Made by a program: the position numbers and the translations under genes. Below the pieces are notes generated by a model, which was given only the letters and a program-made list of their open reading frames with translations, did not search any database and was not told the origin of the DNA. Source: a bacterium (GTDB lineage: Bacteria > UBA8248). Taken from it: a stretch of DNA of 64,000 nucleotides. Of the stretch, positions 33,066 to 53,454 are shown one piece after another. The DNA is taken from NCBI GenBank assembly GCA_965204535.1, contig OZ241996.1, positions 160,001 through 224,000 of the forward strand, in the 5' to 3' direction. Within the stretch, counting starts at the first letter, position 1, and each line of letters begins with the position of its first letter.

Positions 33066-33217
33066 GCGCCGGCTCACGGCCGGGTCTGCACTTGCAGCCG
33101 GCCTGCCGTCCGCCGGGGCACGTGCCGCCGTCCGCCCGCCGGCGGGTTACTTGCAGCCGTCCGGCCGGGGCGGAGGGAAGGACAGCGCCGCCCTGCTGCG
33201 CAGCCGCCGGACCGCCG

Positions 33218-33908: not shown

Positions 33909-33989
33909 GGCAGATCGGGGGATCGGGGAGAGAGGCTCCCCGGCCCCTTCCACTTCATCATCCACACCACACCATGAAGGAGTACTACA

Positions 33990-34424: not shown

Positions 34425-34433
34425 GCTCACCAG

Positions 34434-34466
34434 GGGTCGGCGCTTCGGCGTCGGCCCCTTTTTTTC
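34434..34466 (+). terminator. Intrinsic terminator after ssb
   Basis: GGGGTCGGCGC-TTCG-GCGTCGGCCCC followed by a T run. Confidence 0.8.
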
Positions 34467-35029: not shown

Positions 35030-35404
35030 ATGGAAACCACCGTGGTGAACCTGAACGACTACGTTGCGCCTCAATTCGGCGGCGGATTGCTGGTCAGGAT
35101 CGACCGCATGACCAAGTGGGGAAACCCCTTCCGCATCGGCCAGGACGGCGAGCGCGCCGAGGTCATCGAGAAATACCGGCGATGGCTCTGGGAAAGAATC
35201 CGGCGCGAGGAGCAGGACCTCTACGAACTCGCCGACCTGCAAGGCTGCGAGCTCGGCTGCCACTGCCATCCCCTCCCGTGCCACGGCGACGTACTCGCAC
35301 GCGCCGCCGAGTGGGCCGCCAGGTATCTCGACGGGATGCCGAAAGAAGTGGGGCGCAACGAGCGTGGCTACGCTCTTCCCGAATTCAATCATCCCCTCGC
35401 CTGA
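35030..35404 (+). CDS. DUF4326-like protein
   Basis: IDR.TKWGNPF..G.DG.R..VI..Y; LGCHCHPLPCHGDVL. Confidence 0.8.
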   Translation: METTVVNLNDYVAPQFGGGLLVRIDRMTKWGNPFRIGQDGERAEVIEKYRRWLWERIRREEQDLYELADLQGCELGCHCHPLPCHGDVLARAAEWAARYLDGMPKEVGRNERGYALPEFNHPLA

Positions 35405-35425
35405 GGACAACGAAAGGAGTGAACG

Positions 35426-36385
35426 ATGACTGCCACCGCGACACACGACCACAAGGAGAGCATCATGCACGAGGTTGACAACATCGAAGCGCAGAACGAA
35501 TCCTTCACCGCCATGGTCTGCGAGCAGGCCGCCCTCTTCGGCGCGACCCCCGGCCCTGACGAGTTCGACAACCGCCCCGTGTGGGGCGAGGCGGAGTCCA
35601 CCGCCGCCGTCCTCAAGGCATTCCACCTGCTCGCCGAGGCCGCGCCCGACGGCACGCAACTGGCCGACGAGCGGGCGAGTCTCCTCTGGGGCTTCGTCAA
35701 CACCCTCGACGCCCAGACACAGCGGCTCGACCGCGCCGCCGACAAGCTCATCCCCGGCATCCGTGAACTGCAGCGCGAGCAGGACGGCTCCGAGATCAGG
35801 TCGCGCGAACTCGAACTCGCCACCGACCGGGCCGAGAATCTCACCGCCCGCCGCGACGCCTTCGAAGGATTGCGCGACACGGCCGCAGAGGCCTACCGCG
35901 TCGAGACCGGCGAGGTATGGCGGCCCAGGCGAGGGTCGCACGTCTCTCAGACCGGCAAGCTGACCTCTGCGGTGATCGAGGCGCGTGACTTCCAGCGCGC
36001 GAAAAAGGACCGCGAGAACACGGCCCACCTCCCCCAGGGAACCCTCGTCGCCGTCGCGGGAGGCAAGGAAGCCACCGACGCGGGCAAGATCATCGGCCAG
36101 CTCGACAAGCTGAAAGCCAAGTACGCCGACGTCGTCCTCGTCCACGGCGGCGGCCCCGGCGCCGAGAAGGTCGCGGCGGGATGGGCCGAACGTAACGGCG
36201 TCCACCAGATCGTCTGCAAGCCCGACTGGGACGCCCACGGCAGGGCCGCTCCCTTCAGGCGCAACGACGAGCTGCTCTCCCTCCTTCCCAAGGGCGTGAT
36301 CGCGTTCCCGGGTTCGGGCATCACGGACAACCTCGTCGACAAGGCCAGAGCGCTCGGCATCCCCGTCCAGAAAATCGCCGCCTGA
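35426..36385 (+). CDS. DUF2493 / YspA-like SLOG-domain protein of mobile elements
   Basis: VAVAGG, LVHGG.PGAE, HGRAAPFRRND, AFPGSGIT motifs. Confidence 0.78.
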   Translation: MTATATHDHKESIMHEVDNIEAQNESFTAMVCEQAALFGATPGPDEFDNRPVWGEAESTAAVLKAFHLLAEAAPDGTQLADERASLLWGFVNTLDAQTQRLDRAADKLIPGIRELQREQDGSEIRSRELELATDRAENLTARRDAFEGLRDTAAEAYRVETGEVWRPRRGSHVSQTGKLTSAVIEARDFQRAKKDRENTAHLPQGTLVAVAGGKEATDAGKIIGQLDKLKAKYADVVLVHGGGPGAEKVAAGWAERNGVHQIVCKPDWDAHGRAAPFRRNDELLSLLPKGVIAFPGSGITDNLVDKARALGIPVQKIAA

Positions 36386-36876
36386 CGTGAACGATCAACG
36401 GGCCGCGTCGCCATCCCCGCACCACCGGCGGCGCGGCTCGTTGCTTCCCGTGTCGTTCGCCTGCTTGTGATGTAAAGCGCAAGCTGCAGCGCCCCGTGCG
36501 TCCGCCGCTTGTGAATCCAGGCGCAAGCTCCGGCGCCCTCACTCCCTCTTGCCACTCGCTCTGTCCGCTCAATCGCCGCTACGGCTCCCGCTCGCCATTC
36601 TCTCCGGCGAAAGTTCCCCCGACTCGTGTTCCATAAAATCCCTCCACCTGACGCCCTGCGGCGTTTCGGGTTGTACACCGGACGCATCGCTGATGCGGGT
36701 GTCGCGTTGGTGCGACTGCCCGCGATATGCTGTGAAAATTCGCATCCCCGGGTAGCCCTGTCGTGTCGGAAAAAGCAATACCATTCTGGTATCATGCTAT
36801 CTCCTTGAAATCCGTGCACTTAAAAATGGCGCAGGCTCATTGTAATACGATGTAATACGGAGATTCTATGCAAGAT

Positions 36877-36932
36877 ACCAGATTGGTAGCACCCGGAGGT
36901 GCGCTGCGCTATGATGGCTACCATTTTGGTAG
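36877..36932. promoter_or_regulatory. Candidate MOBF oriT/nic region
   Basis: GCACC-CGGA-GGTGC hairpin followed by GCTGCGCT-ATG, resembling the R388 nic layout; flanked by TACCA-N3-TGGTA palindromes; next to RHH gene. Confidence 0.5.
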
Positions 36933-37063
36933 TTCATGAAACGGCGTCACGGGTATCATTTTGGGACCCGATGCGGGTGTGTTTGGTGCAGAAAATGAGA
37001 ATTTTTGCGGTCGTTTTGCGACCGGAAGGGATGAAAATTTTCTCGAAATGAGAGACGAAACGG

Positions 37064-37414
37064 ATGGTTCAGACGATACAGAAGAACATCAGGGTCACGC
37101 CGGAACAGTGGAAACGAATTGAAAGTGAGGCCGAAAAACGCGAAATGTCGCCCAACCGACTGGTGGTAGAGCTCGTGATGGAAGCCCTGGAGCGCCGCGA
37201 ATGGCCCCGTACGGAAGCGGAAATCCATCTCCTGCGATCGGCAATGTACGTTGCGCAGGCCATCATCCGCGAAATGGAAAGGACCGGGCGAGAAGAGGAA
37301 ATCCAGCAAATCAGTCGAACCATCTCCGAAGTCGCACCGGAATTGCCGGGCAAATCGACGAACAAAGGATCAGCTCAGTCTAAGCCCTCAAGCTCCACGG
37401 ACGACAATATGTAA
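37064..37414 (+). CDS. Ribbon-helix-helix protein (TrwA/MobC-like relaxosome accessory)
   Basis: QKNIRVTPEQWKRIESEAEKREMSPNRLVVELVMEAL RHH pattern. Confidence 0.65.
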   Translation: MVQTIQKNIRVTPEQWKRIESEAEKREMSPNRLVVELVMEALERREWPRTEAEIHLLRSAMYVAQAIIREMERTGREEEIQQISRTISEVAPELPGKSTNKGSAQSKPSSSTDDNM

Positions 37415-37453
37415 GATATTGGCTCGAATTACCGCTAGTAAGAAGCAAAAAAT

Positions 37454-38867
37454 GGTTAAGTCCTAAACTTGCTGGAAACTTTGGAGGGGTGCATCCTCGG
37501 CAGAGGCATCACAAAACCGTGCCGGTAAGCGCCGGCACCAAACCGAGGAGGCACCCCATGAAGAAGAGATTACAGGCATCGACGCACACTCGCCAAGCCC
37601 TGTCCGCCCTGATCGAAGGCCGCCTGTCGAGTCCCGATGCGCGGGCCGACCTGGTGAAGCTCGCCACGCGGCTCATCGTGGAAGAAGCGCTGGAGGCGGA
37701 GAGCCGCGACGCTCTGGGCCGGGAATACTACGAGCACGGAGCGAAGCCCGGCCAGGGCTACCGCAACGGCCATCGTGCAGGTCGTCTCAAGACGGCGGAA
37801 GGGTTCGTCGAGTTCGCGGCGCCTCAGATTGCCGGGCGCGAGGAAGCGTTCCGCTCAGCGATTAGAGACAACCTCAAGGGGCGCACCGAGGGGCTCGAGG
37901 AGTTGGCGGTGGAGCTATTGGCGCGCGGTCTCTCGGTACGGGACATCGAGGACGTCTTCAGCGACGAGAGCGGCCGTTTGCTGCTCTCTCGCACGGCGGT
38001 CTCGGAGCTCGGCGAACGGTTGTGGTCAGAATACCAGGAGTTCGCTTTGCGGGATTTGGGCGAGTACGAGGTTGTCTATCTGTTCATCGACGGGATCGCC
38101 GAGCGGATCCGCCCGGGGAGCAAGCGCGAGCCGGTGCTGGCGGCCTGGGGAATCACGGCGAACGGCGCCAAGGTGCTGCTGCACCTGATGGCGGGTTCGA
38201 AAGAAGACGCCGAAACGGTGAGCGCGTTCTTCCAGGACATGCGCACCCGCGGCCTGGGCGACCCGCTGGTGGTGGTGAGCGACGGGGCGCCGGGCATCAT
38301 CAAGGCGATCGAGACGTGCTTCCCGCGATCGGAGCGGCAGCGCTGTCTGGCGCACCGCATGCGGAACCTCGCGGCGAAGGCGCCCGAGGACCTCTGGCCG
38401 GAGTTCAGGGAGCGGGCAGCGGCGGCCTACCAGGCCCCCTCGCGCGCCATCGCCCGGGAGTTAGCCGATGGACTCGCCAGGGACTACGAGTCGAGGCTGC
38501 CGAGCGCCGTGGCTTGCTTCCGCGATGACTTCGAAGCCTGCATTGCGCACCTGCGTGCGCCGGTCAACCATCGCCGGGCCGTGCGCACCACGAACCAGCT
38601 GGAGCGTTTGTTCGTCGAGGAGCGCCGAAGGCTCAAGATCATCCCGAATGCCTTCGGTGAGAAGCCGGTGCTCAAGCTCATGTTCAGCGCCATGATCCGG
38701 GCCGCCGAAAGGTGGCGCGCGCTCAAGATTACCGGCTTCGAGCGACGCCAGATGGAAGCCCTGAGACGGGAACTGGACCAGAACTACGAGGAGGAAAACG
38801 AACTCAATCGCAGGCCCTCAGCCGATATGCGCCAAAAGAAAGTTTCCAGCAATTCTCGGACTTGACC
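37454..38867 (+). mobile_element. IS256-family element
   Basis: Imperfect 27-bp IRs GGTTAAGTCCTAAACTTGCTGGAAACT / AGTTTCCAGCAATTCTCGGACTTGACC; 8-bp TSD CAAAAAAT. Confidence 0.92.
37558..38865 (+). CDS. IS256 (Mutator-like) transposase
   Basis: YRNG, GLSVRDI, FIDG, VSDG, QRCLAHRMRN, TTNQLE motifs. Confidence 0.92.
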   Translation: MKKRLQASTHTRQALSALIEGRLSSPDARADLVKLATRLIVEEALEAESRDALGREYYEHGAKPGQGYRNGHRAGRLKTAEGFVEFAAPQIAGREEAFRSAIRDNLKGRTEGLEELAVELLARGLSVRDIEDVFSDESGRLLLSRTAVSELGERLWSEYQEFALRDLGEYEVVYLFIDGIAERIRPGSKREPVLAAWGITANGAKVLLHLMAGSKEDAETVSAFFQDMRTRGLGDPLVVVSDGAPGIIKAIETCFPRSERQRCLAHRMRNLAAKAPEDLWPEFRERAAAAYQAPSRAIARELADGLARDYESRLPSAVACFRDDFEACIAHLRAPVNHRRAVRTTNQLERLFVEERRRLKIIPNAFGEKPVLKLMFSAMIRAAERWRALKITGFERRQMEALRRELDQNYEEENELNRRPSADMRQKKVSSNSRT

Positions 38868-39084: not shown

Positions 39085-39978
39085 ATGATTAAACGAATCG
39101 TCGAAATCGGAAGTCCCGCCCGTCTCTCTCTCAGCCGCAAGCAACTGAAAGTGGAACGGGAGGAATACGCCGCAGAGTCTCTCCCCGTGGAGGATCTGGG
39201 CGTCCTGATTCTGGATCACCCGGCCATCCGCCCCTCTCAAGGGTTGTTGTCCGAGTGCATGAAGAACAACGTCGCCGTCGTGATGTGCGACGAGAAGCAC
39301 CTGCCCGCCTCCGTCCTGCTCCCGCTGGACGGACACACCCTGCACAGCAAGATCGTGAAGGAACAGGCCGCCGCCACTCCCGGCAGGCTGAGCCGCCTCT
39401 GGCGGGCGGTCGTGCGCGAGAAGATTCTCGCCCAGGCCGACGCGCTCGACGCCTTCGACGAATACGGCGAGCCGCTCCGAGCCGTCGCCGGGCGCGCGGC
39501 CCGGAAAAACCCCGCCCAGGCCGAGGCCCGCGCCGCGAGAACGTACTGGCCGAGAATGTTCGGACCGGATTTCCGGCGAAACCGCGCGCTTCCGGGGGTG
39601 AACCGCCTGTTGAACTACGGCTATTCGCTCATCCGCGCGGCCACGGCGCGAGCCATCGTCGCGGCGGGCCTGCACCCCGCTTTCGGCCTGCACCATCACA
39701 ACCAGTACGACGGCTTCTGTCTGGCGGACGACCTGATGGAGCCGCTTCGCCCGCTGGTGGACCGCCGGGTGCGCCGGATGCGTGATGAGCCGGAGTTTTG
39801 GGGAGAGGAACTCGAACTGGAGAAGGAGGAGAAGCGCGAGCTTCTGGGCGTGCTGGCCGAAGAGGTCCGGTTCGGCGGAAAGACCTACCCCCTTCTCACC
39901 GCCCTGCAATACTACGCCGCGGGCGTTCGCCGCGTCCTTTGCGGGGAAGAGAAGGAGACGGAAATCCCCCGGCCATGA
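39085..39978 (+). CDS. cas1: Type II CRISPR-associated Cas1
   Basis: PVEDLG, CDEKHLP, EARAARTYW, NRLLNYGY, GLHH, LADDLMEPLRP. Confidence 0.96.
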   Translation: MIKRIVEIGSPARLSLSRKQLKVEREEYAAESLPVEDLGVLILDHPAIRPSQGLLSECMKNNVAVVMCDEKHLPASVLLPLDGHTLHSKIVKEQAAATPGRLSRLWRAVVREKILAQADALDAFDEYGEPLRAVAGRAARKNPAQAEARAARTYWPRMFGPDFRRNRALPGVNRLLNYGYSLIRAATARAIVAAGLHPAFGLHHHNQYDGFCLADDLMEPLRPLVDRRVRRMRDEPEFWGEELELEKEEKRELLGVLAEEVRFGGKTYPLLTALQYYAAGVRRVLCGEEKETEIPRP

Positions 39979-40304
39979 GCTTCGGGAGGTGGCGCAGCAT
40001 GTGGCTCATGGTGATGTTCGATCTGCCGACGGATACGAAGGCGGCGCGCAAAGCCTACCAGGAGTTTCGCGGCTTTTTGCTCGAAGACGGCTTCACCATG
40101 CTCCAATACTCGGTGTACGCCCGGCATTGCCCGAGTTCCGAGAACGCGGAGGTGCACGAGAAGCGCATCAACGCCGCGCTTCCCCCGGACGGGGAGGTGC
40201 GGCTTTTACTCTTCACGGACAAGCAGTTCTCGCGGATGAAGATTTTTTATGGAAAAACCCGCAAGGCGACGGAAAAGGCTCCCGAGCAGATCACGCTGTT
40301 CTGA
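39975..40304 (+). CDS. cas2: CRISPR-associated Cas2
   Basis: MWLMVMFDLP, DGFTMLQYSVYAR, TDKQF; ATGA coupling to cas1. Confidence 0.95.
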   Translation: MSFGRWRSMWLMVMFDLPTDTKAARKAYQEFRGFLLEDGFTMLQYSVYARHCPSSENAEVHEKRINAALPPDGEVRLLLFTDKQFSRMKIFYGKTRKATEKAPEQITLF

Positions 40305-40350: not shown

Positions 40351-40467
40351 CAAAAAGCCCCCGTCCTGAAACGGGGGCCTCTGCCGGTAGTGCCCTTGGG
40401 TTACCGAGCCCGCGCGAAGGGGCGATTGCTGTGATAAGCGAATCGGCCACTCCTCGACTTGCTATGA
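40351..40467 (-). ncRNA. tracrRNA
   Basis: Anti-repeat UAGCAAGUCGAGGAGUGGCCG...AUCACAGC (40464-40428); downstream hairpins and GCCCCCGU/ACGGGGGC-U5 terminator; upstream TTGCGT-17-TAGCAT promoter. Confidence 0.88.
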
Positions 40468-40515
40468 AACGTATGCTAACACTTGGCGATTGCAAACGCA
40501 ATGGAGGACCCACTC

Positions 40516-43500
40516 TTGGAGCGTATTTTTGGATTCGACATCGGGACGACCTCGATAGGCTTCGCCGTGATTGACCACGATCCGGATGCGGCGACGGGCG
40601 AGATTAAGCGTATGGGCGTCCGCATTTTTCCCGAAGCGCGCGATCCGAAGGGCGCGCCGCTCAATCAGGAACGGCGAGCGGCGCGTATGCGCCGTCGCCA
40701 GTTGCGCCGCCGTCGCGAAAGAAGGCGTTCGCTCGGCAAATTGTTGTCCGAAGCCGGTCTACTCCCCACTTACGGATCCCCCGAATGGGACAAGGCAATG
40801 AAGTACGACCCCTACGATCTCAGAAGGCGGGCTTTCGATGGCGCGCCTATCTCCCCGCATGAGTTCGGGAGGGCGATCTACCACCTTGCCCAGCGTCGTC
40901 ACTTCAAGGGGCGGGACGTCGACGAGATTTCCGATGATACCCAGACGGAGGATCGGAAAGAGGAAAAAGCGGACGCCGATGAAAAGAAAGCCAAGGGCAA
41001 GCGCGAATCAACCATAGCAATACTGAAAGACGAGAATAAGACGCTCGGCGCGTGGCTGGCGGAGCGCGGGCCGCATGAACGCAAGCGAGACGAGCATGCA
41101 ACGCGAAAAATCGTCGAGGATGAGTTCGAGAAAATTTGGGAAAAGCAGAAGAAGCATTTGTCTGTGCTTCAGGACGAGGAATTGAGGGACTCCATCCGCG
41201 AGGCGATTTTCGCTCAACGCCCCGTGTTTTGGCGCAAAAATACGTTGGGGGAATGCCGTTTCGTCCCCGAAGCGCCCTTGTGTCCGAGGGGCGCATGGCT
41301 CTCTCAACAGAAGCGGATGCTGGAGAAGGTCAACAACCTCTCGGTGGGCGGCAGCGCCCGCTGCCTCGACGCAGAAGAACGCCGGGCGATTCTCGACAAA
41401 CTGCAAACGCAGGCGTCCATGACCTGGAGCAGAGTTCGGGGCGCGCTCAAGCCGCTTTATGAACAGCGCGGTATGCCGGGCGAGGAGAAGCGCCTCAAGT
41501 TCAATTTGGAAGACAGTGAGAAAAAGCTCATTGGCAACCCGCTCGAAAAGAAACTCGCGGACATTTTCGGTAAAGATTGGCCAGCGCATTCGCGCAAGCA
41601 GGAAATCCGCGACGCCGTGCATGACAGACTTTGGCATGCGGATTACGGGGAAACCGGCTCACAGCGCGTAGTCATTCTCCCAGCGAAAGAACGCAAGAGG
41701 AGGCGCGCAAAGGCGGCGCATGGTTTTGTGGATGATTTCGGCGTCACCGAAGCTCAGGCCGAAAAGCTCAAAGACCTCAAGCTACCCACGGGATGGGAGC
41801 CTTATTCGGTCGCGGCGTTAAAAGCATTTTTGCCCCATCTCGAAGAGGGCGTGCGGTTCGGTACGCTGGTGAGCAGTCCTGAGCCCAAATGGGAAAATTG
41901 GCGAGAAAAAACCTTTCCGCGAATGGAGCAGCCGACGGGCGAAATTCGGGATCGTTTGCCCAGTCCGGCGGATCCGGAGGAAAGGGCGCGCGTCGCTAAA
42001 TTGCGCAATCCCACGGTCGCGCGGGCGCGCAACGAATTGCGCAAGGTCGTCAACAACCTCATCGACAAGTTCGGAAAACCGGACCTGATCCGCGTGGAGT
42101 TGGCACGCGAGGTCGGCATGTCGAAGCGCCAACGCGAGGATATGTCGATCGGTATGAGGCGACAGGAAGGACGACGGAAAAAGGCGAAGGAAGCTCTCGA
42201 AGAAAGAGGGATACCCAACCCTTCGCGCGATGACGTCGAAAAATGGATGCTCTGGGAAGAGTGCGGGCATTTCTGTCCTTACACCGGAAAGGGTATCGGT
42301 TTCGAGGCCCTGTTTCACGAAAACGAATTTCAGGTCGAACACATCTGGCCGCGTTCCCGCTCTTTCGACAACAGTTTCAGAAACAAGACTCTGTGCCATA
42401 AGGACGAAAATCTCAGGAAAGGCAATCACATTCCATTTGAATATCTGAGTAGCGATGAAGAGAGTTGGGATCGGTTGGTGAAGCGACTGGAAGGAATGAA
42501 GGCGACCAAGAGCGGGGTCGGCATGTCGCCGGGCAAGGTCAGACGATTTCTCGCGACTGAGATACCGGAGGACTTCGCCGCGCGCCAACTCAACGACACC
42601 GGATACGCCGCGCGCGAGGCCGTGTCTTTCCTCAGGCAATTGTGGCCGGACGCGGGACCTGAAGCACCCATGACGGTGCAGGCCGTATCCGGCCGCGTTA
42701 CTGCGCAGCTTCGCTGGCTCTGGGGTTTGAACGACATTCTTGGCGAGAGCGGCAAGAAGACGCGATCCGATCATCGCCATCACGCGATTGACGCGCTGGC
42801 AGTCGCCTGTACGCATCTCGGCATGACGCAGAAGCTCTCTCGCTATTGGCAGGTCAGGGACTTACGGATCAAAGAAACCTCACACGCCCGAAAGCCGCGT
42901 CTGGAGCGGCCTTGGGAGACGATTCGCGCCGACGCGGAAAAGGCCGTCGCTGATATCGTCGTGTCGCATCGTGTTCGCAAGAAAATATCCGGGCCGCTGC
43001 ATTTGGGGACAATTTACGGCGATACCCGTAAAGACGCAGTTACCAAATCTGGAACCCACCGCTATTTCGTTACGCGCAAGAAGGTCGAAGAACTAAGCAA
43101 GAGTGATTTGGCGGATAAGAACGAAGACATGTGGCCGGATAAGAGAGTGCGTAAAATCGTCAAAGAGTGGGTGAACACTAATGGCGGAGACTCGAAAAAA
43201 GCATTTTCCTCCGGTTTTCCGCTATGCGGGCGGAACGGTCCTGAAATCCGCAAGGTGCGCTTACGAAAGAAACAGCAGTTGAAACTGATGGCGAAAGCCG
43301 GGACCGGCTACGCCGACCCAGGCGAGAATCACCACATGGCGATTTACCGCCTGCCCGACGGCGAGATCGATTTCGAGGTCGTTTCTTTGTTCGATGCGGC
43401 GCAGCGTCTGGCAAGACGCGAAGACATTGTGCGGCGCAAGCGCGAGGACGGTGCGTGCCTCATCATGTCGCTTTCAAAAGGCGACGCATTGCGGTTTCCT

Positions 43501-43686
43501 GACAACGACCAAGCCAAGGTGCGAATTGTCGAGAGCATTTGGGCGGCTGGCCCGGTAGTAATGGCTGACCACAACGACGCTACTGGAACGACTCGATTTC
43601 GACCTAGTCCCAATCCTATTATAAACAGCGGCGCGAAAAAAATTTCTATCGATCCCATCGGTCGCATACGTCCAGCCAAAGATTGA
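40516..43686 (+). CDS. cas9: Type II-C Cas9 (~1056 aa), Parvibaculum lavamentivorans-like
   Basis: RuvC-I GFDIGTTSIG, Arg-rich bridge helix, RuvC-II IRVELAR, HNH EHIWPRS..DNS..NK, RuvC-III HHAIDA; TTG start after GGAGGA. Confidence 0.97.
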   Translation: MERIFGFDIGTTSIGFAVIDHDPDAATGEIKRMGVRIFPEARDPKGAPLNQERRAARMRRRQLRRRRERRRSLGKLLSEAGLLPTYGSPEWDKAMKYDPYDLRRRAFDGAPISPHEFGRAIYHLAQRRHFKGRDVDEISDDTQTEDRKEEKADADEKKAKGKRESTIAILKDENKTLGAWLAERGPHERKRDEHATRKIVEDEFEKIWEKQKKHLSVLQDEELRDSIREAIFAQRPVFWRKNTLGECRFVPEAPLCPRGAWLSQQKRMLEKVNNLSVGGSARCLDAEERRAILDKLQTQASMTWSRVRGALKPLYEQRGMPGEEKRLKFNLEDSEKKLIGNPLEKKLADIFGKDWPAHSRKQEIRDAVHDRLWHADYGETGSQRVVILPAKERKRRRAKAAHGFVDDFGVTEAQAEKLKDLKLPTGWEPYSVAALKAFLPHLEEGVRFGTLVSSPEPKWENWREKTFPRMEQPTGEIRDRLPSPADPEERARVAKLRNPTVARARNELRKVVNNLIDKFGKPDLIRVELAREVGMSKRQREDMSIGMRRQEGRRKKAKEALEERGIPNPSRDDVEKWMLWEECGHFCPYTGKGIGFEALFHENEFQVEHIWPRSRSFDNSFRNKTLCHKDENLRKGNHIPFEYLSSDEESWDRLVKRLEGMKATKSGVGMSPGKVRRFLATEIPEDFAARQLNDTGYAAREAVSFLRQLWPDAGPEAPMTVQAVSGRVTAQLRWLWGLNDILGESGKKTRSDHRHHAIDALAVACTHLGMTQKLSRYWQVRDLRIKETSHARKPRLERPWETIRADAEKAVADIVVSHRVRKKISGPLHLGTIYGDTRKDAVTKSGTHRYFVTRKKVEELSKSDLADKNEDMWPDKRVRKIVKEWVNTNGGDSKKAFSSGFPLCGRNGPEIRKVRLRKKQQLKLMAKAGTGYADPGENHHMAIYRLPDGEIDFEVVSLFDAAQRLARREDIVRRKREDGACLIMSLSKGDALRFPDNDQAKVRIVESIWAAGPVVMADHNDATGTTRFRPSPNPIINSGAKKISIDPIGRIRPAKD

Positions 43687-43728
43687 ACCAGTTATAAGAT
43701 ATCCGCGAGATTGTAAGGAAATGGTTTC

Positions 43729-43772
43729 TTCCGCCCGATCGGCTGGATTTTTTTGTCGCCGATCAGGCGGAA
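43729..43772. terminator. Inverted repeat in the CRISPR leader; probable terminator between convergent cas9 and crRNA transcripts
   Basis: TTCCGCCCGATCGGC ... GCCGATCAGGCGGAA. Confidence 0.5.
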
Positions 43773-43804
43773 ATGGCCTTTTTTCAGTACCTTACGAAAA
43801 AGCG

Positions 43805-45290
43805 ATTGTAGCAAGTCGAGGGGTGGCCGCAAACCACAGTCTGCGAGCTTGCCGATTGATTCCGCGCATTATTGTAGCAAGTCGAGGGGTGGCCGCAAAC
43901 CACAGTCTACCATCACTCCGGGCTTTGCTACAAAAGATTGTAGCAAGTCGAGGGGTGGCCGCAAACCACAGTAAGATCGTGAAAAAGCATCGTGAAAACT
44001 CGATTGTAGCAAGTCGAGGGGTGGCCGCAAACCACAGTTTAGGACGGGAAGCGTAGACAACCCGATCCATTGTAGCAAGTCGAGGGGTGGCCGCAAACCA
44101 CAGTGAATGAAGTTGCGCCTTCAAGCCGTCACCGATTGTAGCAAGTCGAGGGGTGGCCGCAAACCACAGTGCTCCTCGTCTTGTGGACCGCAAAGAGCCC
44201 ATTGTAGCAAGTCGAGGGGTGGCCGCAAACCACAGTACGCGGCATCGAGGCTCACCTGCACCCGGTATTGTAGCAAGTCGAGGGGTGGCCGCAAACCACA
44301 GTCCAGCGTGGTGCTTCCTCATGCTCGCATCGATTGTAGCAAGTCGAGGGGTGGCCGCAAACCACAGTTGGTGCAGGTTCTTCACGCTCACGCGTCCGAT
44401 TGTAGCAAGTCGAGGGGTGGCCGCAAACCACAGTTAGAATGCGTGCAGATCCACCTGCTTCTTGATTGTAGCAAGTCGAGGGGTGGCCGCAAACCACAGT
44501 GTGTCTCGAAGGATGTGGACGACAGGAATATTGTAGCAAGTCGAGGGGTGGCCGCAAACCACAGTAAGAGTCAGGGGATTACGGAACTCAAGCAAATTGT
44601 AGCAAGTCGAGGGGTGGCCGCAAACCACAGTCATGGGCCTCTGTTGGTTATTCTTGGCCTGATTGTAGCAAGTCGAGGGGTGGCCGCAAACCACAGTCGT
44701 TTCTTCACCGAATCACTGCCGAAAATATTGTAGCAAGTCGAGGGGTGGCCGCAAACCACAGTCCTGATCATCGAGGAGCGCTACGCCCACCGATTGTAGC
44801 AAGTCGAGGGGTGGCCGCAAACCACAGTGCTTCATTTACAGGAGCAACAACCGGATTTATTGTAGCAAGTCGAGGGGTGGCCACAAACCACAGTGAAGGA
44901 GGCGCGATGTCATGGCCAGACGAAATTGTAGCAAGTCGAGGGGTGGCCGCAAACCACAGTATCTAAAGTATCGGCATCTACATCAAGATCATTGTAGCAA
45001 GTCGAGGGGTGGCCGCAAACCACAGTTACTAGGCGTTTTCGTATAGAATGCCTTTAATTGTAGCAAGTCGAGGGGTGGCCGCAAACCACAGTGAGCACCG
45101 CAGCGTAAGCCCGAGCTTCGCGATTGTAGCAAGTCGAGGGGTGGCCGCAAACCACAGTTCATAGGTGGATTCGCCTATAATGCCTCTAATTGTAGCAAGT
45201 CGAGGGGTGGCCGCAAACCACAGTAGCTAGACGTTTTCGCGTATGCTCTTCTCAATTGTAGCAATTCAAGGGGTGGCAGCAAACCACTCG
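43805..45290 (-). CRISPR. Type II-C array: 23 repeats of 36 bp (last one degenerate), 22 spacers of 29-30 bp
   Basis: Repeat ATTGTAGCAAGTCGAGGGGTGGCCGCAAACCACAGT; minus-strand form ends in TGCTACAAT (repeat-embedded extended -10) and pairs with tracrRNA. Confidence 0.98.
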
Positions 45291-45854
45291 TTGCGAAAGG
45301 CTGGATTCATAAAGGGAATCGTCATATCTTTGTGCATGGTGGCGCATCTCTTATTTACTGAATGATCGGGCTTCTGACAACCCTATTTCAGCAGGAATGC
45401 GCCGTCTTCTTCAATTCAGCCCACACACAAGATCTGAGGGTAACTCTGCATAAAGTTTATGCAGGACAATGACTTATTGCTCTCATAATCATTGTCAAGT
45501 GAAGTGGAACGTAGCCGGGGAATGGTCTGTATCTGTGGATAGTTCAAGTGTGTGCGATTCATCGGCAACTTTTTTCCGAGTCCTAAGTCAGGTTGCGATC
45601 GGGTGATGCTGGGCATGAATCTGTAAATTGAGCGGTGTGGTCAGTTCCCAGATGTGTCGGTACGGAAGCTGAAGGTGAATAAGTTGCTGGATCGGACTTG
45701 CGCCTAAGAGCACCCAACGGTTTCCTCGTTGCGGGGTAGACTTGCTGGAAGCCACACAACCGAAGGCACCAGTAGTCGCAGGCGGCTCGGCGGTTCTTGT
45801 GCCAGGTCCGAACTGGTCGGGGACACGAGCAAATCAATGCTTCTGATTTGGCAC

Positions 45855-45884
45855 TTGACACTGTAGTGTGAAGTGCACTACATT
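45855..45884 (+). promoter_or_regulatory. TA operon promoter with palindromic operator
   Basis: TTGACA-18-TACATT overlapping TGTAGTG-N7-CACTACA. Confidence 0.65.
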
Positions 45885-45905
45885 AGCCTTGTGAAAGGGG
45901 CGGCC

Positions 45906-46214
45906 ATGTTAGACTTTGACATATCATCAAGTTCTTCTACCAAACACACTAGAACCACGCAGGTGCGTCACGATGATCGACTAGCGACCCTGATTGAGCG
46001 TGCTGCACTGTCGCTAGCTGTGCATAAATCGGTCTTCCTGCGCGCAGTGATTGAGCGCGAGGCAATACATGTGCTTGAAGCGCAATCCCGACATGTTCTG
46101 ACACCGGAGGACGCCGAGCAGTTCGCTGCGGCCCTTGATTCCCCCCCCGCTCTGACTCCACGCGCTCGGGAGGCGGCACGAAACTATCGCGCGCGCGTGG
46201 TTCATGCCGACTGA
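45906..46214 (+). CDS. DUF1778 (RHH) antitoxin
   Basis: IERAA...FLRAVIEREA...LTPEDAEQFAAALDSPP; overlaps the GNAT gene. Confidence 0.85.
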   Translation: MLDFDISSSSSTKHTRTTQVRHDDRLATLIERAALSLAVHKSVFLRAVIEREAIHVLEAQSRHVLTPEDAEQFAAALDSPPALTPRAREAARNYRARVVHAD

Positions 46215-46749
46215 AACACCTGCCCTTAGAATCGAATCTTTTGATCCAGCACGGCATGACCGCGTCGGTTTCGATTGCGGTGTTGATCGCCTGAACAACT
46301 ACCTCAAGCTGAGCGCAAAGAAGCAACAGAAAGACGACATGACCCGCGTCTATGTTGTTGTCGAAGAGGGGAGCACGCGCATCCTCGGCTACCATGCGAT
46401 CAACGTGGGCAAGATGAACGTGGACGAGCTCGAGCATCGACCGCGCGGGACACCGAAGCATGGAGAGATCCCGGTGCTGTTCCTGGGACAGGTCGCAGTG
46501 GACAAGCCGTCGCAAGATACAGGTCTTGGCGGCATCCTCATGTACCATGTCTTCGAAAAAGCATGCAAGATTTCCGAAATGGCCGGTTGCCATGCAATCA
46601 TCCTTGATGTCATCTCGGATGGAGGGGAAGAAGCACTTGCGCGTCGTAGAGCGTGGTACGAAAACTTTGGTTTCACTTCCTTCTCCAGCAATCCTGCACG
46701 CATGTTCCTTGTGATGAAACAGGTCCGCGCGGTGACTCGGGCAAAGTGA
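46204..46749 (+). CDS. GNAT acetyltransferase toxin (TacT/AtaT-like)
   Basis: HDR..FDCG...LNNYL, LGQVAVD..Q..GLG, WYENFGF. Confidence 0.88.
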   Translation: MPTETPALRIESFDPARHDRVGFDCGVDRLNNYLKLSAKKQQKDDMTRVYVVVEEGSTRILGYHAINVGKMNVDELEHRPRGTPKHGEIPVLFLGQVAVDKPSQDTGLGGILMYHVFEKACKISEMAGCHAIILDVISDGGEEALARRRAWYENFGFTSFSSNPARMFLVMKQVRAVTRAK

Positions 46750-46965
46750 CGAGAAGCGACCGCTTCGTCTTTCGTTGGTTCGGCTAGTCTGAATCGGGGA
46801 CGTAAGTTGCCAAGGAGTTGAAACCCGAGAGAATCGGCATCAAGATGAGCAAAAGAAAGCTCAATAAAATCCTCATCCCCTTCAACTTCCATGGATTTCA
46901 GGACAATAGCCTTCGAAATCAATTCACGATGAGGAGGCAGGGCTTGGAGCGTTCCAAGACCGGCA

Positions 46966-47730
46966 ATGAGGAGCACGATGTTGACAGGGTTACTTGAACT
47001 TGATCGGCCCAAGGCATGGCCACCAGAATTGTGTGCATATCTTGGTGAGTATTACGATTTGTTCCTGGGGTGGGAGACCAAACAAGATAAGCCCTCCGCT
47101 TCCGCGTATGATTGTGCCCTGCAAGGATTGATGGGTATCTTACAGCCGTATGTGATCTTGGGTTGGCATTGCACGCGGATCACAGCTGCAGAAGCAGACG
47201 ATATCCTACGTAGCGGCATACAAATGCCCGATGCCGCCATGCTGGAACGCCGCATCGATGCTCTTGTGGAATCCAATGAAATCGCCCCTGATCTCGCATG
47301 TCTACTCAAGAGTAAGAATCAATCGGATGAGAAGAACCGTGCTGGAAAGGTCTGGTTCTGCTTTTTTCCGCCGAGGAAGGCGGGAGAGGGGGGAATCGAA
47401 CGGTTCTTCCGCCACTGGGGAGGTGAGGCTCTTTACAATTCTCACGAGGATGATCCTGTTACGTCACCCGCTATCCGCGATGTAGGGACACCTTGCATCG
47501 TCGAGGTTGATGTGCCGGTTTCGTCACTTGCGAGACACGAACCTCTTGCTCTCAATATCGTCCGTCGATTCCTGGCCAGCCGAGACCACCGCATGACAGA
47601 GTCAACTGACTACGAAGATCGAATAGTGCAACCGTTATCGGCTACGAATGTTCGTCGCGTAATTCGCTTTCCTGATCCGGATTTCTTTGCCCTCACGGGT
47701 TGTGCAGAATGGCGTAGGCCGATCGTATAA
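46966..47730 (+). CDS. Hypothetical protein (possible ADP-ribosyltransferase-like fold)
   Basis: ORF track; GWHCTR, G-I, VWFCF, GGE motifs. Confidence 0.55.
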   Translation: MRSTMLTGLLELDRPKAWPPELCAYLGEYYDLFLGWETKQDKPSASAYDCALQGLMGILQPYVILGWHCTRITAAEADDILRSGIQMPDAAMLERRIDALVESNEIAPDLACLLKSKNQSDEKNRAGKVWFCFFPPRKAGEGGIERFFRHWGGEALYNSHEDDPVTSPAIRDVGTPCIVEVDVPVSSLARHEPLALNIVRRFLASRDHRMTESTDYEDRIVQPLSATNVRRVIRFPDPDFFALTGCAEWRRPIV

Positions 47731-48368
47731 GCCGAGGTACCTTCATGCTAGAAGGGTTTGCGTCCCGCATCGCCCTGTTTTGAATATGATTTTACTACAG
47801 GTCGACTACACTCAAGTCGCGCTCAGAAGTCGTCTTTAGGCGCGGATCGGAGCTTTTGGTATAAGTTGCGGTGTGCCGACGCATAACTCTGAACGAGCCA
47901 TTGCAGGTTGAACTATAGAGTACGACTGCTCAATAGTAGCGGTAGTGTCATGGAGTGATAATGCCGCAAGACTCAGAAGCAGTTATTAGTATGGCACTGC
48001 GTATCCGATTGGGTCGACGAATTTTTGATGCTCATAACCCTGCGACCGAACGGATACTTGATCGCTTACGACCGTAGCTCGCAGGGCTGCGCTGGAGTTA
48101 TAATTCATCCGCTTTCGATTTGATTACAAGTTGCGGAAAGCAAGCCCCCAACAAAACTCGCAAAAAACAAATACCCACAACAGTTTCAACAAACTATATA
48201 GACCTCATAGCTATTGGCTCAACCCTAACGTTTGAACCACGCGACACGGTGAATCTAGCTAGATGAAGTCAATATAAAAGATAGATCGGTGGCTCTTAGG
48301 CAAAATACAATAGGAGTCTGTCGACTGCTTTTCTGTTACAATTCGATACATTAAACAGGAGGATAGAC

Positions 48369-49214
48369 ATGGCACTTGGAGATGGAATACGAAGAAATAT
48401 CGCTCATGTTTCAACAGTAGAGCGAGTACGCTTCAGAGATGCGATTATTGAGCTCAACAGTAGATATTATCCTGACAATGTTTCGAAGTGGGTCAAGCAA
48501 GACCAAATCCATCAGGATACTTATGTTCACCACAAGCCGTCGTTCTTGCCTTGGCACCGAGAGCTCTGTAACCGTTTCGAACAGCTACTGCGAGAAGGCG
48601 ATGAGGAGCTATCGCTACACTATTGGGACTGGACAGAAGATCCACGACGGGCGGGCGATGGAGCTGGTGGCACGATAGATCTGTTTACGGCGGAGTTCAT
48701 GGGAGCGGCGTTCAGAAGCGTCGGGTCGCCTTTCACCGATTTTCCTGCATTTGCTCGAAAGGTGGCAGGGGGAAAAAACGCCCCTGCCCCGACTGGCACA
48801 GACACTGATTCGTCAATCATCAATTCGACGAACGGAGTTGCTCGAGGCGATCAGTGGAAGACATTCCGGCAAAAGATTGAAAGTCCTCCAAACCATGATT
48901 CGATTCACGCGTACATAGGCGGCTCAATCGGCAATGAACACACGGCCTTCGAGGATCCGTTCGTCTTCCTGCTCCACTCCAACGTGGATCGTCTCTGGGC
49001 AATGTGGCAAACAGTGAGCGGAGAGGAATGGCGCCTCGATCCCCAAAAAATCTATGGGAACGAAGGCTCTGACTCTAACATCTTAGAGAACCTTGAACCT
49101 TGGGCAGGCGGACGCGGTTTACGCCCTTGGGGACCGCCAGAAAATCAGCAGGTTGTCAAGAACTCCAAGCATACGACAATCGTGATACCGCCACGTTACG
49201 ACACGTTGCCTTAG
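48369..49214 (+). CDS. Tyrosinase-family type-3 copper protein
   Basis: H..HH..SFLPWHR, YWDW, HDSIH..IGG, DPFVFLLHSNVDRLW; AGGAGG RBS. Confidence 0.9.
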   Translation: MALGDGIRRNIAHVSTVERVRFRDAIIELNSRYYPDNVSKWVKQDQIHQDTYVHHKPSFLPWHRELCNRFEQLLREGDEELSLHYWDWTEDPRRAGDGAGGTIDLFTAEFMGAAFRSVGSPFTDFPAFARKVAGGKNAPAPTGTDTDSSIINSTNGVARGDQWKTFRQKIESPPNHDSIHAYIGGSIGNEHTAFEDPFVFLLHSNVDRLWAMWQTVSGEEWRLDPQKIYGNEGSDSNILENLEPWAGGRGLRPWGPPENQQVVKNSKHTTIVIPPRYDTLP

Positions 49215-49309
49215 CTGATCGCAACTGTATGACAGAATTGGATATTTTGCCGACCAATAAGGGGTCGCAAAGGCTGTCGGGAGTTACCCTCAGATCTTGT
49301 GTATGGGCG

Positions 49310-49506
49310 GAATTGAAGAAGGCAGCGCTGAGCCTCGTGCATTACTCACCATGAGCGCCGAGAAGCGATGGCGCCGCCTACGAGGCTTCCGTCATCTGGC
49401 CGATGTGATCGCCGACGTGAGGTTCATCAATGGTGTGGGCGAAAAAGAAACGGGCAGGAGGGCCGCTGAATTCAGGACGGCCATACACAAGATTTGACAG
49501 TAACTC
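49310..49506 (+). pseudogene. IS256-family 3' remnant
   Basis: SAEKRWRRLRGFRHLADVI..VRF.NGV C-terminus followed by an IR-like end. Confidence 0.65.
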
Positions 49507-49532
49507 AAAGATTCATTTTGACATAGAATAAT

Positions 49533-49991
49533 TTATTTGCTTCTCATCTTACCTGGAACTTCAATACAACCCGTTTTGTCTTGATCACAATTTGCTAAAG
49601 ACAAATTTTCAACCTTAAGACATCGACGAAGATCAGTTATAAAAAAATCCGAATAATGAGGTATTGTTCTATCTTGATTTCCCAATTCATAAAATCTAGT
49701 AGCTTCTAATACACAACGATCAATGGCTTTTTGTTTGCTCTTAGAACAAGTCTCTTTTAAACATTCAGATACAATTACCCCTGGATGTACAGGTGCATAT
49801 TTATATGAAAGAAAAATATGTAACTGCGAGTAAATTACCAGAGCACTTAAAAGTACACATATTATCCAAAACCATCTCCCCTCCTTGAAAATAAATTTGA
49901 ATCCTGAAATTATCTTATCTTTATAATTCCAAACTGTCATGACAATAAGACCTACAAAAATCCAATAAAGAAACTCAAGTATTGTTTTCAT
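49533..49991 (-). CDS. Very AT-rich hypothetical membrane protein with Cys-rich C-terminus
   Basis: ORF track; two TM segments. Confidence 0.6.
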   Translation of the reverse strand: MKTILEFLYWIFVGLIVMTVWNYKDKIISGFKFIFKEGRWFWIICVLLSALVIYSQLHIFLSYKYAPVHPGVIVSECLKETCSKSKQKAIDRCVLEATRFYELGNQDRTIPHYSDFFITDLRRCLKVENLSLANCDQDKTGCIEVPGKMRSK

Positions 49992-50154
49992 TTTCTTCTC
50001 TTTTAACGTAGAAAAATTAAATCACGAATAAATATGATGGATAATAATATTATTCAGATTCTCAAATATATTAAGAAATTGCCACCTCAAAAATAAGTGA
50101 ATTTTGTTAACTTTGCTTAATTAATCCCTTTATGATTCGCAGTCGAAGAGAAGA

Positions 50155-51042
50155 ATGAAGACAACCGAGGAAGCTACCAAGGGCCTTTTTGTACTGGCTG
50201 GACGGGTGCCATTGAATATTGCGCCTGAGAAAGCCGAAGAACTAGTAAAGGAGGTGTTCGGCAACGATGAATGGGAACTGCGACCAAGCCGGACTAAAGC
50301 CAATTTCTACGCTGTAGTCGAAGAGCGGGCAGTATATCTGTCGTTCGCTGGGTTAGCGAGTCTGTGGTGTCTAACATTCACTGCATATTGTGTAATGGAT
50401 ATTGCCTCTCGAAGTACACGTGACAATGACTTTCAGGGGTCTCAAATCGATATCAGCAATCAGTGGAACGAACTGAAGCTTGATGCTTACCTGAACTATG
50501 CCCGCCGCCTTTTCCGCGCTGATGAGCAGTGGCCGGAAGGACTCAGAGCGCCAGTAAGTGATGCAGAATTTGACTCTGTTGATGGGCGAATCAACAATCT
50601 TTTTTATGGCTCTCTAAGTTGGATTCTGCTTCACGAAATTGCTCATATTTATCACGGAGATTTGCGGTTACTGCCGGCTTCGATGAAAGTTGTGCAAGAG
50701 TTTCGAGCGGATGAATTCGCTACGAATTGGATTTTAGATAATGCTGGTTCTGGCCGTCAGCGAGAGTTTCGAGCACTTGCGATCACAGTTGCCCATGCTT
50801 GGCTCTTGTTGCATGAGGCAACGATAGGCCGAGGCTATGACCATCCGTTGGCGTTACAACGATTTTTAGGAGCTGTAAATCAGTTGGAATTGAAAAATCG
50901 AAGCACCGCGCTGGAAAATGCCGCCTATATGCTAAAGGCGATCTTCGATCCCGAATCAGTGATGCCGACGGCGTTGTTGGCGCATGAAGCATTCGAGTGG
51001 GTGAGTAAACGGATTGCCGAGCAGTTCAGAGAGACACATTAG
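50155..51042 (+). CDS. lit: Lit-like phage-exclusion peptidase (U49)
   Basis: WILLHEIAHIYHGD...EFRADEFA...HP...R. Confidence 0.72.
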   Translation: MKTTEEATKGLFVLAGRVPLNIAPEKAEELVKEVFGNDEWELRPSRTKANFYAVVEERAVYLSFAGLASLWCLTFTAYCVMDIASRSTRDNDFQGSQIDISNQWNELKLDAYLNYARRLFRADEQWPEGLRAPVSDAEFDSVDGRINNLFYGSLSWILLHEIAHIYHGDLRLLPASMKVVQEFRADEFATNWILDNAGSGRQREFRALAITVAHAWLLLHEATIGRGYDHPLALQRFLGAVNQLELKNRSTALENAAYMLKAIFDPESVMPTALLAHEAFEWVSKRIAEQFRETH

Positions 51043-51189
51043 AAGAGTCCAATCTCTTCTATATGTACCGCTCGGTAGCCAACCGACGGGAGATTCAGTT
51101 TACTTTATTCATGAATAGTACCGCAATCAATCGTGCATTCCGAGAGTCTCGTGGCATTGAAGTCTACCTTTGGACGCATCATGTTCTGC

Positions 51190-51422
51190 GCGTTAAACTT
51201 GGCACCGCAGCAGCGACTCCAGAAAGCCCAATACCTTCCCCCGCGTCAGCTTCTTGCGGAACGCGACAGACCCGTCCGGGCGCGCCCCGTCGATTTGAAA
51301 ACCCGTTTCGCCAGAGCGATCCCGAAGATGTGTAACTGTTCATGAATTCCCTTCCTGCAGGGCGGTAAACTATGTCGCCTTACCACAGTGTGATATTGCG
51401 AGGAGGGCACGTCCACCCCATC
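51190..51422 (-). pseudogene. IS110 (IS1111-type) 5' remnant, frameshifted
   Basis: Minus strand reads FGIALAKRVF then, after a frameshift, DGARPDGSVAFRKKLTRGKVLGFL; end motif GTCCACCCCATC. Confidence 0.65.
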
Positions 51423-51764
51423 GGATACGGACAGGAACCCTCCGAGATGCGCAGGAGTTTGAATTCATCCGCTTCCGATTTGATTACTTCTTACAGAGAG
51501 CTAATTCCGATCAAGATCAAGAACCACACATATTTCTCAATAATATCAACGGAATAGCGGAATTCCCTACCTGCCGAAAATCCCCCACCCTCTCTAACCA
51601 CGCGGGAGAGCGGGATTCGCCGAAGGTCTCGCGCCGTGATTTCGCTTGGACGGTACGCTTGATTCGGGGACCGGGCCGGTCTATGATGGAGGCCACGTTC
51701 ACGAGCAGTCTGTGGACCGGAACCGTGCAGGGGATACCAGACCACCCGCCCGCAAGGCGAACGA

Positions 51765-52682
51765 ATGACCGGAGAGCTTCCCTTCGACACTTCCGATCTG
51801 GAATCGTCGGCGATTTCCCCCTTCAGGGAGCTGGGCGCCTACGAGGCGCTCTGGAACGAGGAGGGGATGTCTTTCCGGAAACTCGCGGAAAGGCGCCGCC
51901 GGCGGCCCGGTTCCATGCTGTCCGATTTCGTGTCGAGGTCGGACGCCCGCGACTTCGCCCACCGCGTTCGCGACATGCTGTCCGAGGCCGGAATCGAGGG
52001 GTTCGGCATACGCGTGCACGGCGCGGGAGAATACCCCCTCAAGCTCAGGGATGCCGCGAACCCCGTGGAGTTGCTCTATTACCGGGGCTGGTGGGACCTG
52101 GTTCATACGCGCTGCGTGGCGGTGGTCGGCGCGAGGAAAGCCTCACCGGAAGGGATCGCGCGCACGCGCCGTCTGGTCGGGAAGCTCGTCGCCGACGATT
52201 TCACGGTTGTTTCGGGACTGGCCGGAGGGGTCGATGCGGCCGCGCACGCCGCGGCGATCGACTCGGGCGGCAGGACGATAGGGGTGATGGGAACGCCGAT
52301 ATCCCGGGCCTACCCGCAAGCGAATGCGGAACTCCAGGAGCGGATCGCCGCCGGGCATCTGCTGATCAGCCAGGTTCCCGTCTGGCGTCATTCCCGGCAG
52401 GGCCCGAAGAGAAACAGGCTTTTCTTCCCGGAGCGCAACATCACGATGTCGGCCCTCACCGAGGCGACCGTCATCGTCGAGGCCGGCGAGACGTCGGGGA
52501 CGCTGATCCAGGCGCGCGCCGCGCTGCAACAGGGGCGGAAGCTGTTCATTCTCGACAACTGCTTCCAGAATCCGAAACTCGCGTGGCCCGCGAAATTCGC
52601 CGGGAAAGGCGCCGTCCGGGTCCGGGAATACAGCGACATCGGGCGGCATCTTGACGACGCTCAGACTCTCCAGGATCGATGA
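51765..52682 (+). CDS. DprA/Smf (SLOG) protein, ShosA-like
   Basis: YP..L, VAVVGAR, VVSGLAGGVD..AH, F..RN..MSAL, VEAGETSGTLIQA. Confidence 0.85.
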   Translation: MTGELPFDTSDLESSAISPFRELGAYEALWNEEGMSFRKLAERRRRRPGSMLSDFVSRSDARDFAHRVRDMLSEAGIEGFGIRVHGAGEYPLKLRDAANPVELLYYRGWWDLVHTRCVAVVGARKASPEGIARTRRLVGKLVADDFTVVSGLAGGVDAAAHAAAIDSGGRTIGVMGTPISRAYPQANAELQERIAAGHLLISQVPVWRHSRQGPKRNRLFFPERNITMSALTEATVIVEAGETSGTLIQARAALQQGRKLFILDNCFQNPKLAWPAKFAGKGAVRVREYSDIGRHLDDAQTLQDR

Positions 52683-53274
52683 CCTGACGCGCGGGGACCA
52701 CTCGCGCCTCGAGCGTGAAGACCGGTGTTATTTCCTCGGGGAGTACACGCCGCGGGAGGGGTTTTCCTTCAGCGATACGAACGGCCTCGTATCGGATTTC
52801 AAGAAGCCGGTGACGAAAAAAGGGAAACCCGAATGGAAATGGAAAGAGCGCGCGATCCGCGAGGTGGCGGCGCTGTTTCGGAAATCGATTCCCCTGAACC
52901 CTCTCCGGAACATGACCCTGGTTCCCATCCCGCCGTCAAGGGCGAGAGACGATCCGGAACACGACGACCGGATGCTGCGCGCGCTCCGTCAACTCGGAAG
53001 AGGAGAGGAGTTCGACGTTCGTGAGTTGATCCTGCAGCACGAAAGCACGGAGGCGGCCCACACGAGCGCGCGCCGGCCCGGCGTGGGGGATCTCGTCGGC
53101 AACTACCGCATCGACGAGAGCCTGGCGGAACCGCCTCCCCGAGACGTCGCGCTGTTCGATGACGTGCTTACCAGCGGCGCCCATTTCAAGGCGGCGCAAA
53201 GCGTTCTCCGTGACCGGTACCCGGATGTTTTCGTCGTCGGGATTTTCATCGCCCGGCGCGTGATAAACAGATGA
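52651..53274 (+). CDS. Phosphoribosyltransferase-like protein, ShosT-like
   Basis: LVPIPPS and LFDDVLTSGAHF PRPP-binding motif; overlaps the dprA-like gene. Confidence 0.75.
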   Translation: MTTLRLSRIDDLTRGDHSRLEREDRCYFLGEYTPREGFSFSDTNGLVSDFKKPVTKKGKPEWKWKERAIREVAALFRKSIPLNPLRNMTLVPIPPSRARDDPEHDDRMLRALRQLGRGEEFDVRELILQHESTEAAHTSARRPGVGDLVGNYRIDESLAEPPPRDVALFDDVLTSGAHFKAAQSVLRDRYPDVFVVGIFIARRVINR

Positions 53275-53454
53275 TACGCCGCAGGACGACTCCGGGATGA
53301 ACGCGGCGTTGCGCGCAAGGATGCCGCGCCCGCTGAAAATCCCCCACCCTCTATAAACACGCGGAAGAGCCGGATGCGCGCCCCCTCCCGCCGGGAGGGG
53401 GGCCGCGATGAAGCGGGGCGGGAGGAACGGCCCGCGCTTCCCCCGGGTCCGCCC

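Follow-up and report, generated by a model that had tools for sequence, protein, structure and literature searches.

Cas9 guides aimed at promoter DNA have been described in several bacteria. The tracr-L RNA of S. pyogenes, the scaRNA of F. novicida and the crlRNAs of mini-arrays are dedicated or degenerate guides that recognize host or cas promoters through partial matches, and matches of ~11 bp are reported to repress transcription in the tracr-L and scaRNA systems (10.1101/2023.03.03.530964). Spacers of immune systems may also gather at promoters: the type III-A system of S. thermophilus shows a hotspot at early phage promoters near cro-like genes, where RNA is targeted just downstream of the promoter and no PAM is needed. 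[quoted passage not shown] In type II-C arrays, crRNAs are described as arising from promoters within the repeats, with base 6 of each spacer as their start (PMC12477760), and transcription as running from the conserved end of the array (PMC5524643). The group of PlCas9, Cme4 and Ghh2 is among the known systems closest to the locus studied here.

The window, by which we mean the whole 64,000-nt stretch of bacterial DNA analysed, carries what is, judged from its genes and sequence, a type II-C CRISPR-Cas locus (Table 1): cas1, cas2 and cas9 are the only cas genes between a transposase and a toxin-antitoxin (TA) pair, csn2 and cas4 being absent from the locus, and a tracrRNA with an anti-repeat is predicted. 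The RuvC and HNH catalytic motifs of Cas9 are intact on inspection. Within the predicted tracrRNA, for which an Rfam search gave zero match, the anti-repeat lies at about 40428-40464 and a terminator hairpin at 40357-40378, followed by a U-run. A type II-C system is in itself of a known kind, and this one shares with the PlCas9/Cme4/Ghh2 group its cas1, cas2, cas9 and tracrRNA, a 36-nt repeat of the same family and 30-nt spacers. The C-terminal 248 aa of its Cas9 are 56% identical to a Parvibaculum sp. Cas9 and 41% to Cme4 (locus L122). The gene order here is cas1-cas2-tracr-cas9-array, whereas in most related loci the array lies ~1.3 kb behind cas9. The locus also differs in its predicted PAM, which would end in A where the assayed members PlCas9, Cme4 and Ghh2 have T or C, and in its promoter-register spacers, which related II-C arrays lack.

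Table 1. Features of the CRISPR-Cas locus, in window coordinates.
Feature	Position	Strand	Evidence or content
cas1	39085..39978	+	PF01867
cas2	39975..40304	+	PF09827
Predicted tracrRNA	40352..40468 (ends approximate)	-	Sequence and duplex with repeat
Cas9, type II-C, Parvibaculum/clade IX-like	40501..43686	+	Pfam RuvC_III, HNH_4, Cas9_a; homologs; motifs
CRISPR array, 23 repeats of 36 nt, 22 spacers	43805..45290	-	Repeat/spacer parsing
S19	45027..45056	-	On + strand: operator-like palindrome 45030-45045, -10-like hexamer 45044-45049
S20	45093..45122	-	Unrelated to the S19/S21/S22 family
S21	45159..45188	-	On + strand: operator-like 45162-45177, -10 45176-45181
S22, terminal spacer	45225..45254	-	On + strand: operator-like 45228-45243, -10-like 45242-45247
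Degenerate terminal repeat, likely old end	45255..45290	-	Array parsing

The original prediction for this array had taken the crRNAs to be minus-strand, and two observations back this: the minus-strand anti-repeat ends in a terminator-like hairpin and U-run, and the homologous repeats of Cme4 and Ghh2 are given in the corresponding direction (PMC7606464, supplementary file 7). The energy of the repeat/anti-repeat duplex cannot by itself tell the crRNA strand. On the minus strand, an extended -10-like TGCTACAAT closes every repeat. Given minus-strand crRNAs, starts embedded in the repeats and transcription from the conserved end, the PAM would lie left of each spacer as written, the guide would span about positions 1-24, and S19 to S22 are likely the oldest spacers; the degenerate repeat next to S22 agrees with their predicted place at the likely old end. 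Folding gives the S21 guide a hairpin of -6.2 kcal/mol, the strongest among the 22, which could weaken this guide. The idea that the spacers act as antisense promoters within the array was rejected: the repeat provides no -35, and none of the three spacers was called as a promoter. Only four public runs contain the region, one of them labelled as a sponge metagenome; in contigs of runs X1-X3 the first repeat is joined directly to S22, possibly through assembly collapse, and run X4 does not reach the spacers.

Three of the four terminal spacers are alike in identical register, as had been claimed, and their sequences are as originally quoted. The ungapped identities of S19 with S21 (21/30) and with S22 (17/30) are the top two among 231 spacer pairs, S21 and S22 agreeing at 14/30. 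A best pair of at least 21 arose in 3 of 20,000 shuffled arrays and one of at least 17 in 4.8% of them, which makes S22, taken alone, the weaker case. Twelve columns are invariant across the three spacers; among 2,000 shuffled arrays, one contained a triple that reached this number. The occupation of three among four adjacent positions has P=0.04 for any four adjacent spacers and 0.003 for the oldest four. Each spacer also has the predicted -10-like hexamer at positions 18-23 (TAGAAT in S19, TATAAT in S21, TATGCT in S22); S13 (window 44632-44661) has a 4/6 hexamer there too, without the family operator. The imperfect palindrome that was thought to overlap this hexamer (TAGRCG-N4-CGYNTA) held in part: half-sites agree at 4/6, 5/6 and 4/6 in S19, S21 and S22, but S5, an unrelated spacer, also reaches 5/6, so the palindrome by itself does not set the three apart. 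We also dropped the view, based on motifs compared by eye, that it is dif-like or KorC-like.

How general such spacers are was assessed in 75 related loci, whose 41 arrays hold 531 unique spacers. A -10-like hexamer at position 18 is found in 4 of the 22 window spacers (3 of them in the family) and in none of the 531, where other positions give 0-4 (Fisher P=2e-6 and 5e-5, post hoc); none of the 531 resembles the S19/S21/S22 family beyond 17/30. Promoter-register spacers are thus not clade-wide. These arrays also bear on the idea that the three spacers are decayed duplicates of one, which the original prediction had itself considered, or alike by chance. For this idea, S19 and S21 share 6 of their last 7 bases, which are not conserved in the phage class described below, and S22 alone is borderline. 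Against it, repeats 18-22 are unchanged while the spacers between them differ at 9, 13 and 16 of 30 positions, and these differences spare operator and -10; variant spacer pairs in the related arrays agree at 26-28/30, with none at 20-25 among 9,052 pairs; and chance likeness has a shuffle P of ~1.5e-4. We therefore regard duplication or chance as very improbable. As a separate observation, locus L024 (13300-13470; genome G014) has, just behind an array built from repeats of a different type, two orphan repeats of the window type with one spacer; nearly the same 30 nt stand at the end of both arrays.

It had been suggested that searches of host, metagenome, viral and plasmid sequences would return intergenic protospacers with TTGNNN directly upstream. 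Such searches found no protospacer of S19, S21 or S22 in the host, its relatives, or the phage, plasmid, viral and metagenome collections. The best identity outside the array, 24/30, is a chance match inside a coding region. In the host genome, no self-target exceeds 25/30 for any spacer or 21/30 for the three, and seed, PWM and seed-plus-PAM scans for them were negative; when the whole array was compared with 42 genomes of the host family, only repeats matched. Named phage and plasmid collections gave chance matches only, the metagenome scan for spacers gave zero matches, and a GTDB scan gave three loci, two coding and one an intergenic TTGACA promoter at 17-20/30. Two viral scans returned zero loci and a further one a single coding match; a relaxed viral scan returned four loci, three of them promoter-family sites and the fourth a coding chance match, and pointed to the immunity region of a phage, in which TAGGCG-N4-CGCCTA sites recur.

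These sites belong to a phage promoter class that matches the spacers in register. An unanchored scan found 17 viral loci, with TTG exactly three bases outside the palindrome in 7 (6 of 12 distinct sites); in 5 of the 6 distinct TTG sites, TTG lies on the far side of the palindrome, so the TATAAT behind the palindrome is not always a -10, and in phages it frequently represents the -35 side in reverse complement. S19, S21 and S22 have no reverse -35 at positions 26-28, so the forward promoter reading applies to them. Anchoring the pattern as TTGACA-NNN-TAGRYG-N4-CGYN-TA, itself derived from the spacers, gave 69 viral loci (43 distinct sites) against 20 for a permuted control, so that ~20 of the 69 may be background; some mechanical ORF of at least 100 aa runs across 19 of the 43 sites. 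At positions that the pattern leaves free, the -10 consensus is followed at T20 (24/43), A21 (23/43) and T23 (27/43), with no enrichment at A22 (13/43), and S19, S21 and S22 fit the class consensus at 7 of 9 of their free positions 20, 21 and 23. Palindrome positions 7 and 16 covary (21 G-C, 14 A-T and 8 unpaired; Fisher P=8e-5, counting related phages that are not independent). The anchored site most like any spacer agrees at 21/30: these sites are relatives of the targets and not the targets themselves.

Three lambdoid phages (G066, G067 and G068), chosen because each carries one TTGACA-anchored site, show the arrangement of the class. TTG stands in register at 4 of 12, 8 of 13 and 5 of 10 of their operator sites, respectively; over their 59 operator matches, TTG occurs at the spacer register in 17 and at the next-best offset in 7, and among spacer-shaped sites (TAnnnT, no reverse -35) it is in register in 11 of 15. 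Within one phage, the 30-mers behind the -35 are 12-23/30 alike, a likeness similar to that among the three spacers. Operator copies cluster around a CI-like gene with HTH_3 and S24 domains, several of them flanking it, and this clustering suggests that a CI-like repressor binds the operator. Lambdoid CI-repressed promoters with overlapping operators (XRE plus S24 repressors) are the known counterpart: the spacers reproduce a -35-to-+1 stretch with a palindrome between -35 and -10. In the literature accessible to our search, no description of the operator TAGRCG-N4-CGYYTA was found. The prediction that the spacers match a family of repressor-controlled promoters thus has indirect support from the existence of such a family, in which TTG occupies exactly positions -6 to -4 relative to the spacer register, and none from a protospacer; no link of the spacers to acr-aca promoters or a helper element was seen. 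Among 51 genomes of the host's class we found neither a close CI homolog nor a TTG-flanked operator, so nothing ties phages of the G066-G068 type to this host.

If the -35 box of these promoters is to serve as PAM, it would read NNNCAA on the bottom strand, the complement of TTG, as had been proposed. The C-terminal region groups the window Cas9 by homology with Parvibaculum-like Cas9s, and its PAM-interacting region and repeat family are homologous to those of PlCas9-like clade IX enzymes. For P. lavamentivorans Cas9 the PAM is NNNCAT (PMC6859307; table in PMC4736575), as the original prediction had stated; Cme4 likewise uses NNNCAT, with 6% A at position 6, and Ghh2 NNNCAC, with 0.01% A there (PMC7606464, supplementary files 7 and 8). 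The PAM loop reads W-x-AGP in the window Cas9 and W-x-SGQ in Cme4, and the AGP loop may set PAM position 6. Two related arrays with an AGP Cas9 (L130, read from 7 of 31 records, and L080) served as proxies through targets matching at 26-28 of 29-30 positions, three weak matches (21/30, 24/30 and 25/30) being excluded. For L130, the flanks are CAG and GAG for spacer 62, CAA and AAA for spacer 53, and CAT, CAT and CAC, one base further out, for the 29-nt spacer 24; L080 gives CAA and CGA. L130 spacers had zero matches in plasmids, and comparison of overlapping spacers gave no PAM. Clade PAMs, by analogy, would support NNNCA for the window Cas9 but speak against a final A: at position 6, all three assayed relatives favour T or C, the CAA flanks of two relatives being the evidence on the other side. 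A relaxed sixth position is plausible, and the window Cas9 likely uses the -35 box as PAM. Apart from this question, at least three L130 spacers match major capsid genes of Microviridae at 26-28 of 29-30 positions.

With an NNNCAA PAM, a spacer would start at the base after TTGACA, and by register comparison S19, S21 and S22 each start exactly where the class -35 ends. The array alone thus yields the PAM prediction. The explanation that we favour, and consider probable, is that these are ordinary Cas9 spacers whose source was three copies of a single class of repressor-controlled sigma-70 promoter (TTGACA-NNN-TAGRCG-N4-CGYN-TAnnnT) in one temperate phage or phage lineage. A PAM located in the -35 box would force each spacer to begin at the following base and so account for the alignment of the three in register. 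The seed would then lie over the left half-site of the operator, with the guide of ~24 nt extending through the -10. The nuclease-intact Cas9 would cut these promoters; the spacers were likely enriched or kept because the usual escape, a single base changed in PAM or seed, would harm either the promoter or the site of the repressor.

Whether selection or uptake brought the three together is where the main rival parts from this account. Drawing all 22 spacers from NNNCAA sites chosen at random in one such phage would give three promoter matches with P ~1e-5 to 5e-5 (post hoc), so some bias in uptake or retention is needed. The same phage-promoter origin could thus go with enrichment at acquisition, through an early, exposed or first-injected region or through uptake that was repeated or primed during one epidemic, with persistence at the old end a matter of neutral history. 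The three spacers do lie within four adjacent positions, as one episode would give; the type III peak of uptake at early phage promoters (PMC13575424) offers a precedent, and a bias towards genome ends has been described for type II (PMC5524643). Yet the type II spacers of PMC13575424 have no such promoter bias, and related arrays have no -10 enrichment at position 18. We consider acquisition bias in one epidemic the main rival, and rather unlikely.

Cas9 might also not need to cut. Bound to partly matched promoters of the class by way of the -35 PAM and the seed shared in the operator, it could block RNA polymerase at early phage promoters, the guides then acting as broad, cleavage-independent silencers; the PAM-proximal TAGRYG is common to the whole class, and the ~11-bp repression by tracr-L and scaRNA lends the idea some credit. 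However, variation across the class affects both the three bases next to the PAM and the central 4 nt of the operator, so that seeds would rarely match at least 10 nt, Cas9 is nuclease-intact, and the spacers sit in a normal array between normal repeats. We judge broad silencing to be improbable. More speculatively, a Cas9 whose PAM is the complement of the -35 might keep its guides on phage repressor promoters, so that PAM and seed would lie on bases needed by the phage, giving escape-resistant immunity and possibly cut-free silencing of an entire promoter class; the operator, copied downstream of the repeat promoters, might let a prophage repressor both shield its promoters and switch off the guides, so that lysogens would be tolerated and lytic entry attacked. 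This fuller scheme is offered tentatively, as an unlikely one.

The remaining reading gives the guides a role in regulating host genes or the cas operon, in the manner of scaRNA or tracr-L. The window guides share with tracr-L, scaRNA and crlRNAs a predicted aim at promoter DNA, but they are full-length spacers in the main array between perfect repeats, and they have no host target. Neither the host genome nor the cas locus promoters contain a seed of at least 11 nt with the predicted PAM. Across 51 genomes of the host's class, the motif occurs less often than its reversed control and in no case beside TTG; when 42 family genomes were scanned with TTG as anchor, 2 coding matches were obtained against 5 for the control, and motif scans of family and class were at or below control throughout. 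One operator-like site in the host genome (G000:C2:2516591) and the possible incompleteness of the host assembly (95.7%) can be set in its favour, but that site has no TG on either side and is at most ~18/30 alike. The host-regulon option of the original prediction has thus fallen away: regulation of host genes or cas is largely refuted and, in our estimate, extremely unlikely. In the region around the site (L278, G000:C2:2516490-2516950), a stretch of operator plus -10 is identical over 20 nt to one in phage G067. An IS1595-like transposase stands on one side of this stretch and a second, short tRNA-Ser(TGA) on the other; a TTG -35 is absent, and the operator part was not found in 41 family genomes. 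The stretch is possibly a mobile-element relic.

In the literature covered by our search, we found no prior description of guides held to one class of promoters by a PAM coincident with the -35 box. In contrast to the type III-A hotspot, it is a PAM within the -35 that would set the register here. If the coincidence is real, PAM and seed would both fall on bases that purifying selection preserves, which would be nature's own design for guides that resist escape, and it would provide a testable reason for PAM diversification and for the persistence of some old spacers. This perspective comes from one array, with the target phage not found and related systems showing no sign of the same; the finding also points to a widespread phage operator class.

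Several further features of the locus and its genome deserve mention. Directly behind the array (window 45855-46749) lies a pair of TacA-like antitoxin and GNAT toxin genes, whose TTGACA promoter is overlapped by a palindrome of its own, unrelated to the spacers. A short element beside the array (window 45385-45446) has a second copy at 49481-49506 and occurs in several other contigs of public runs with different flanks. The same genome holds a second type II-C locus (G000:C2:2097881-2103076) with four repeats and a distant Cas9 (35% identical). The closest relative of the window Cas9 (71%) is found in another genome (L020; G001:C1, ~2655100-2658600, minus strand), together with a tracrRNA-like region, a mini-array with one spacer only and a duplicated host segment flanking the locus; there is no space for adjoining cas1 and cas2, and its PAM-interacting region is unlike that of the window Cas9. 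Finally, window segments 23067-37837 and 40713-55427 recur at both ends of host contig C2 (G000:C2) at 99.6-99.9% identity, with an identical array and without the transposase-cas1-cas2 segment, as a strain variant or an assembly duplicate.
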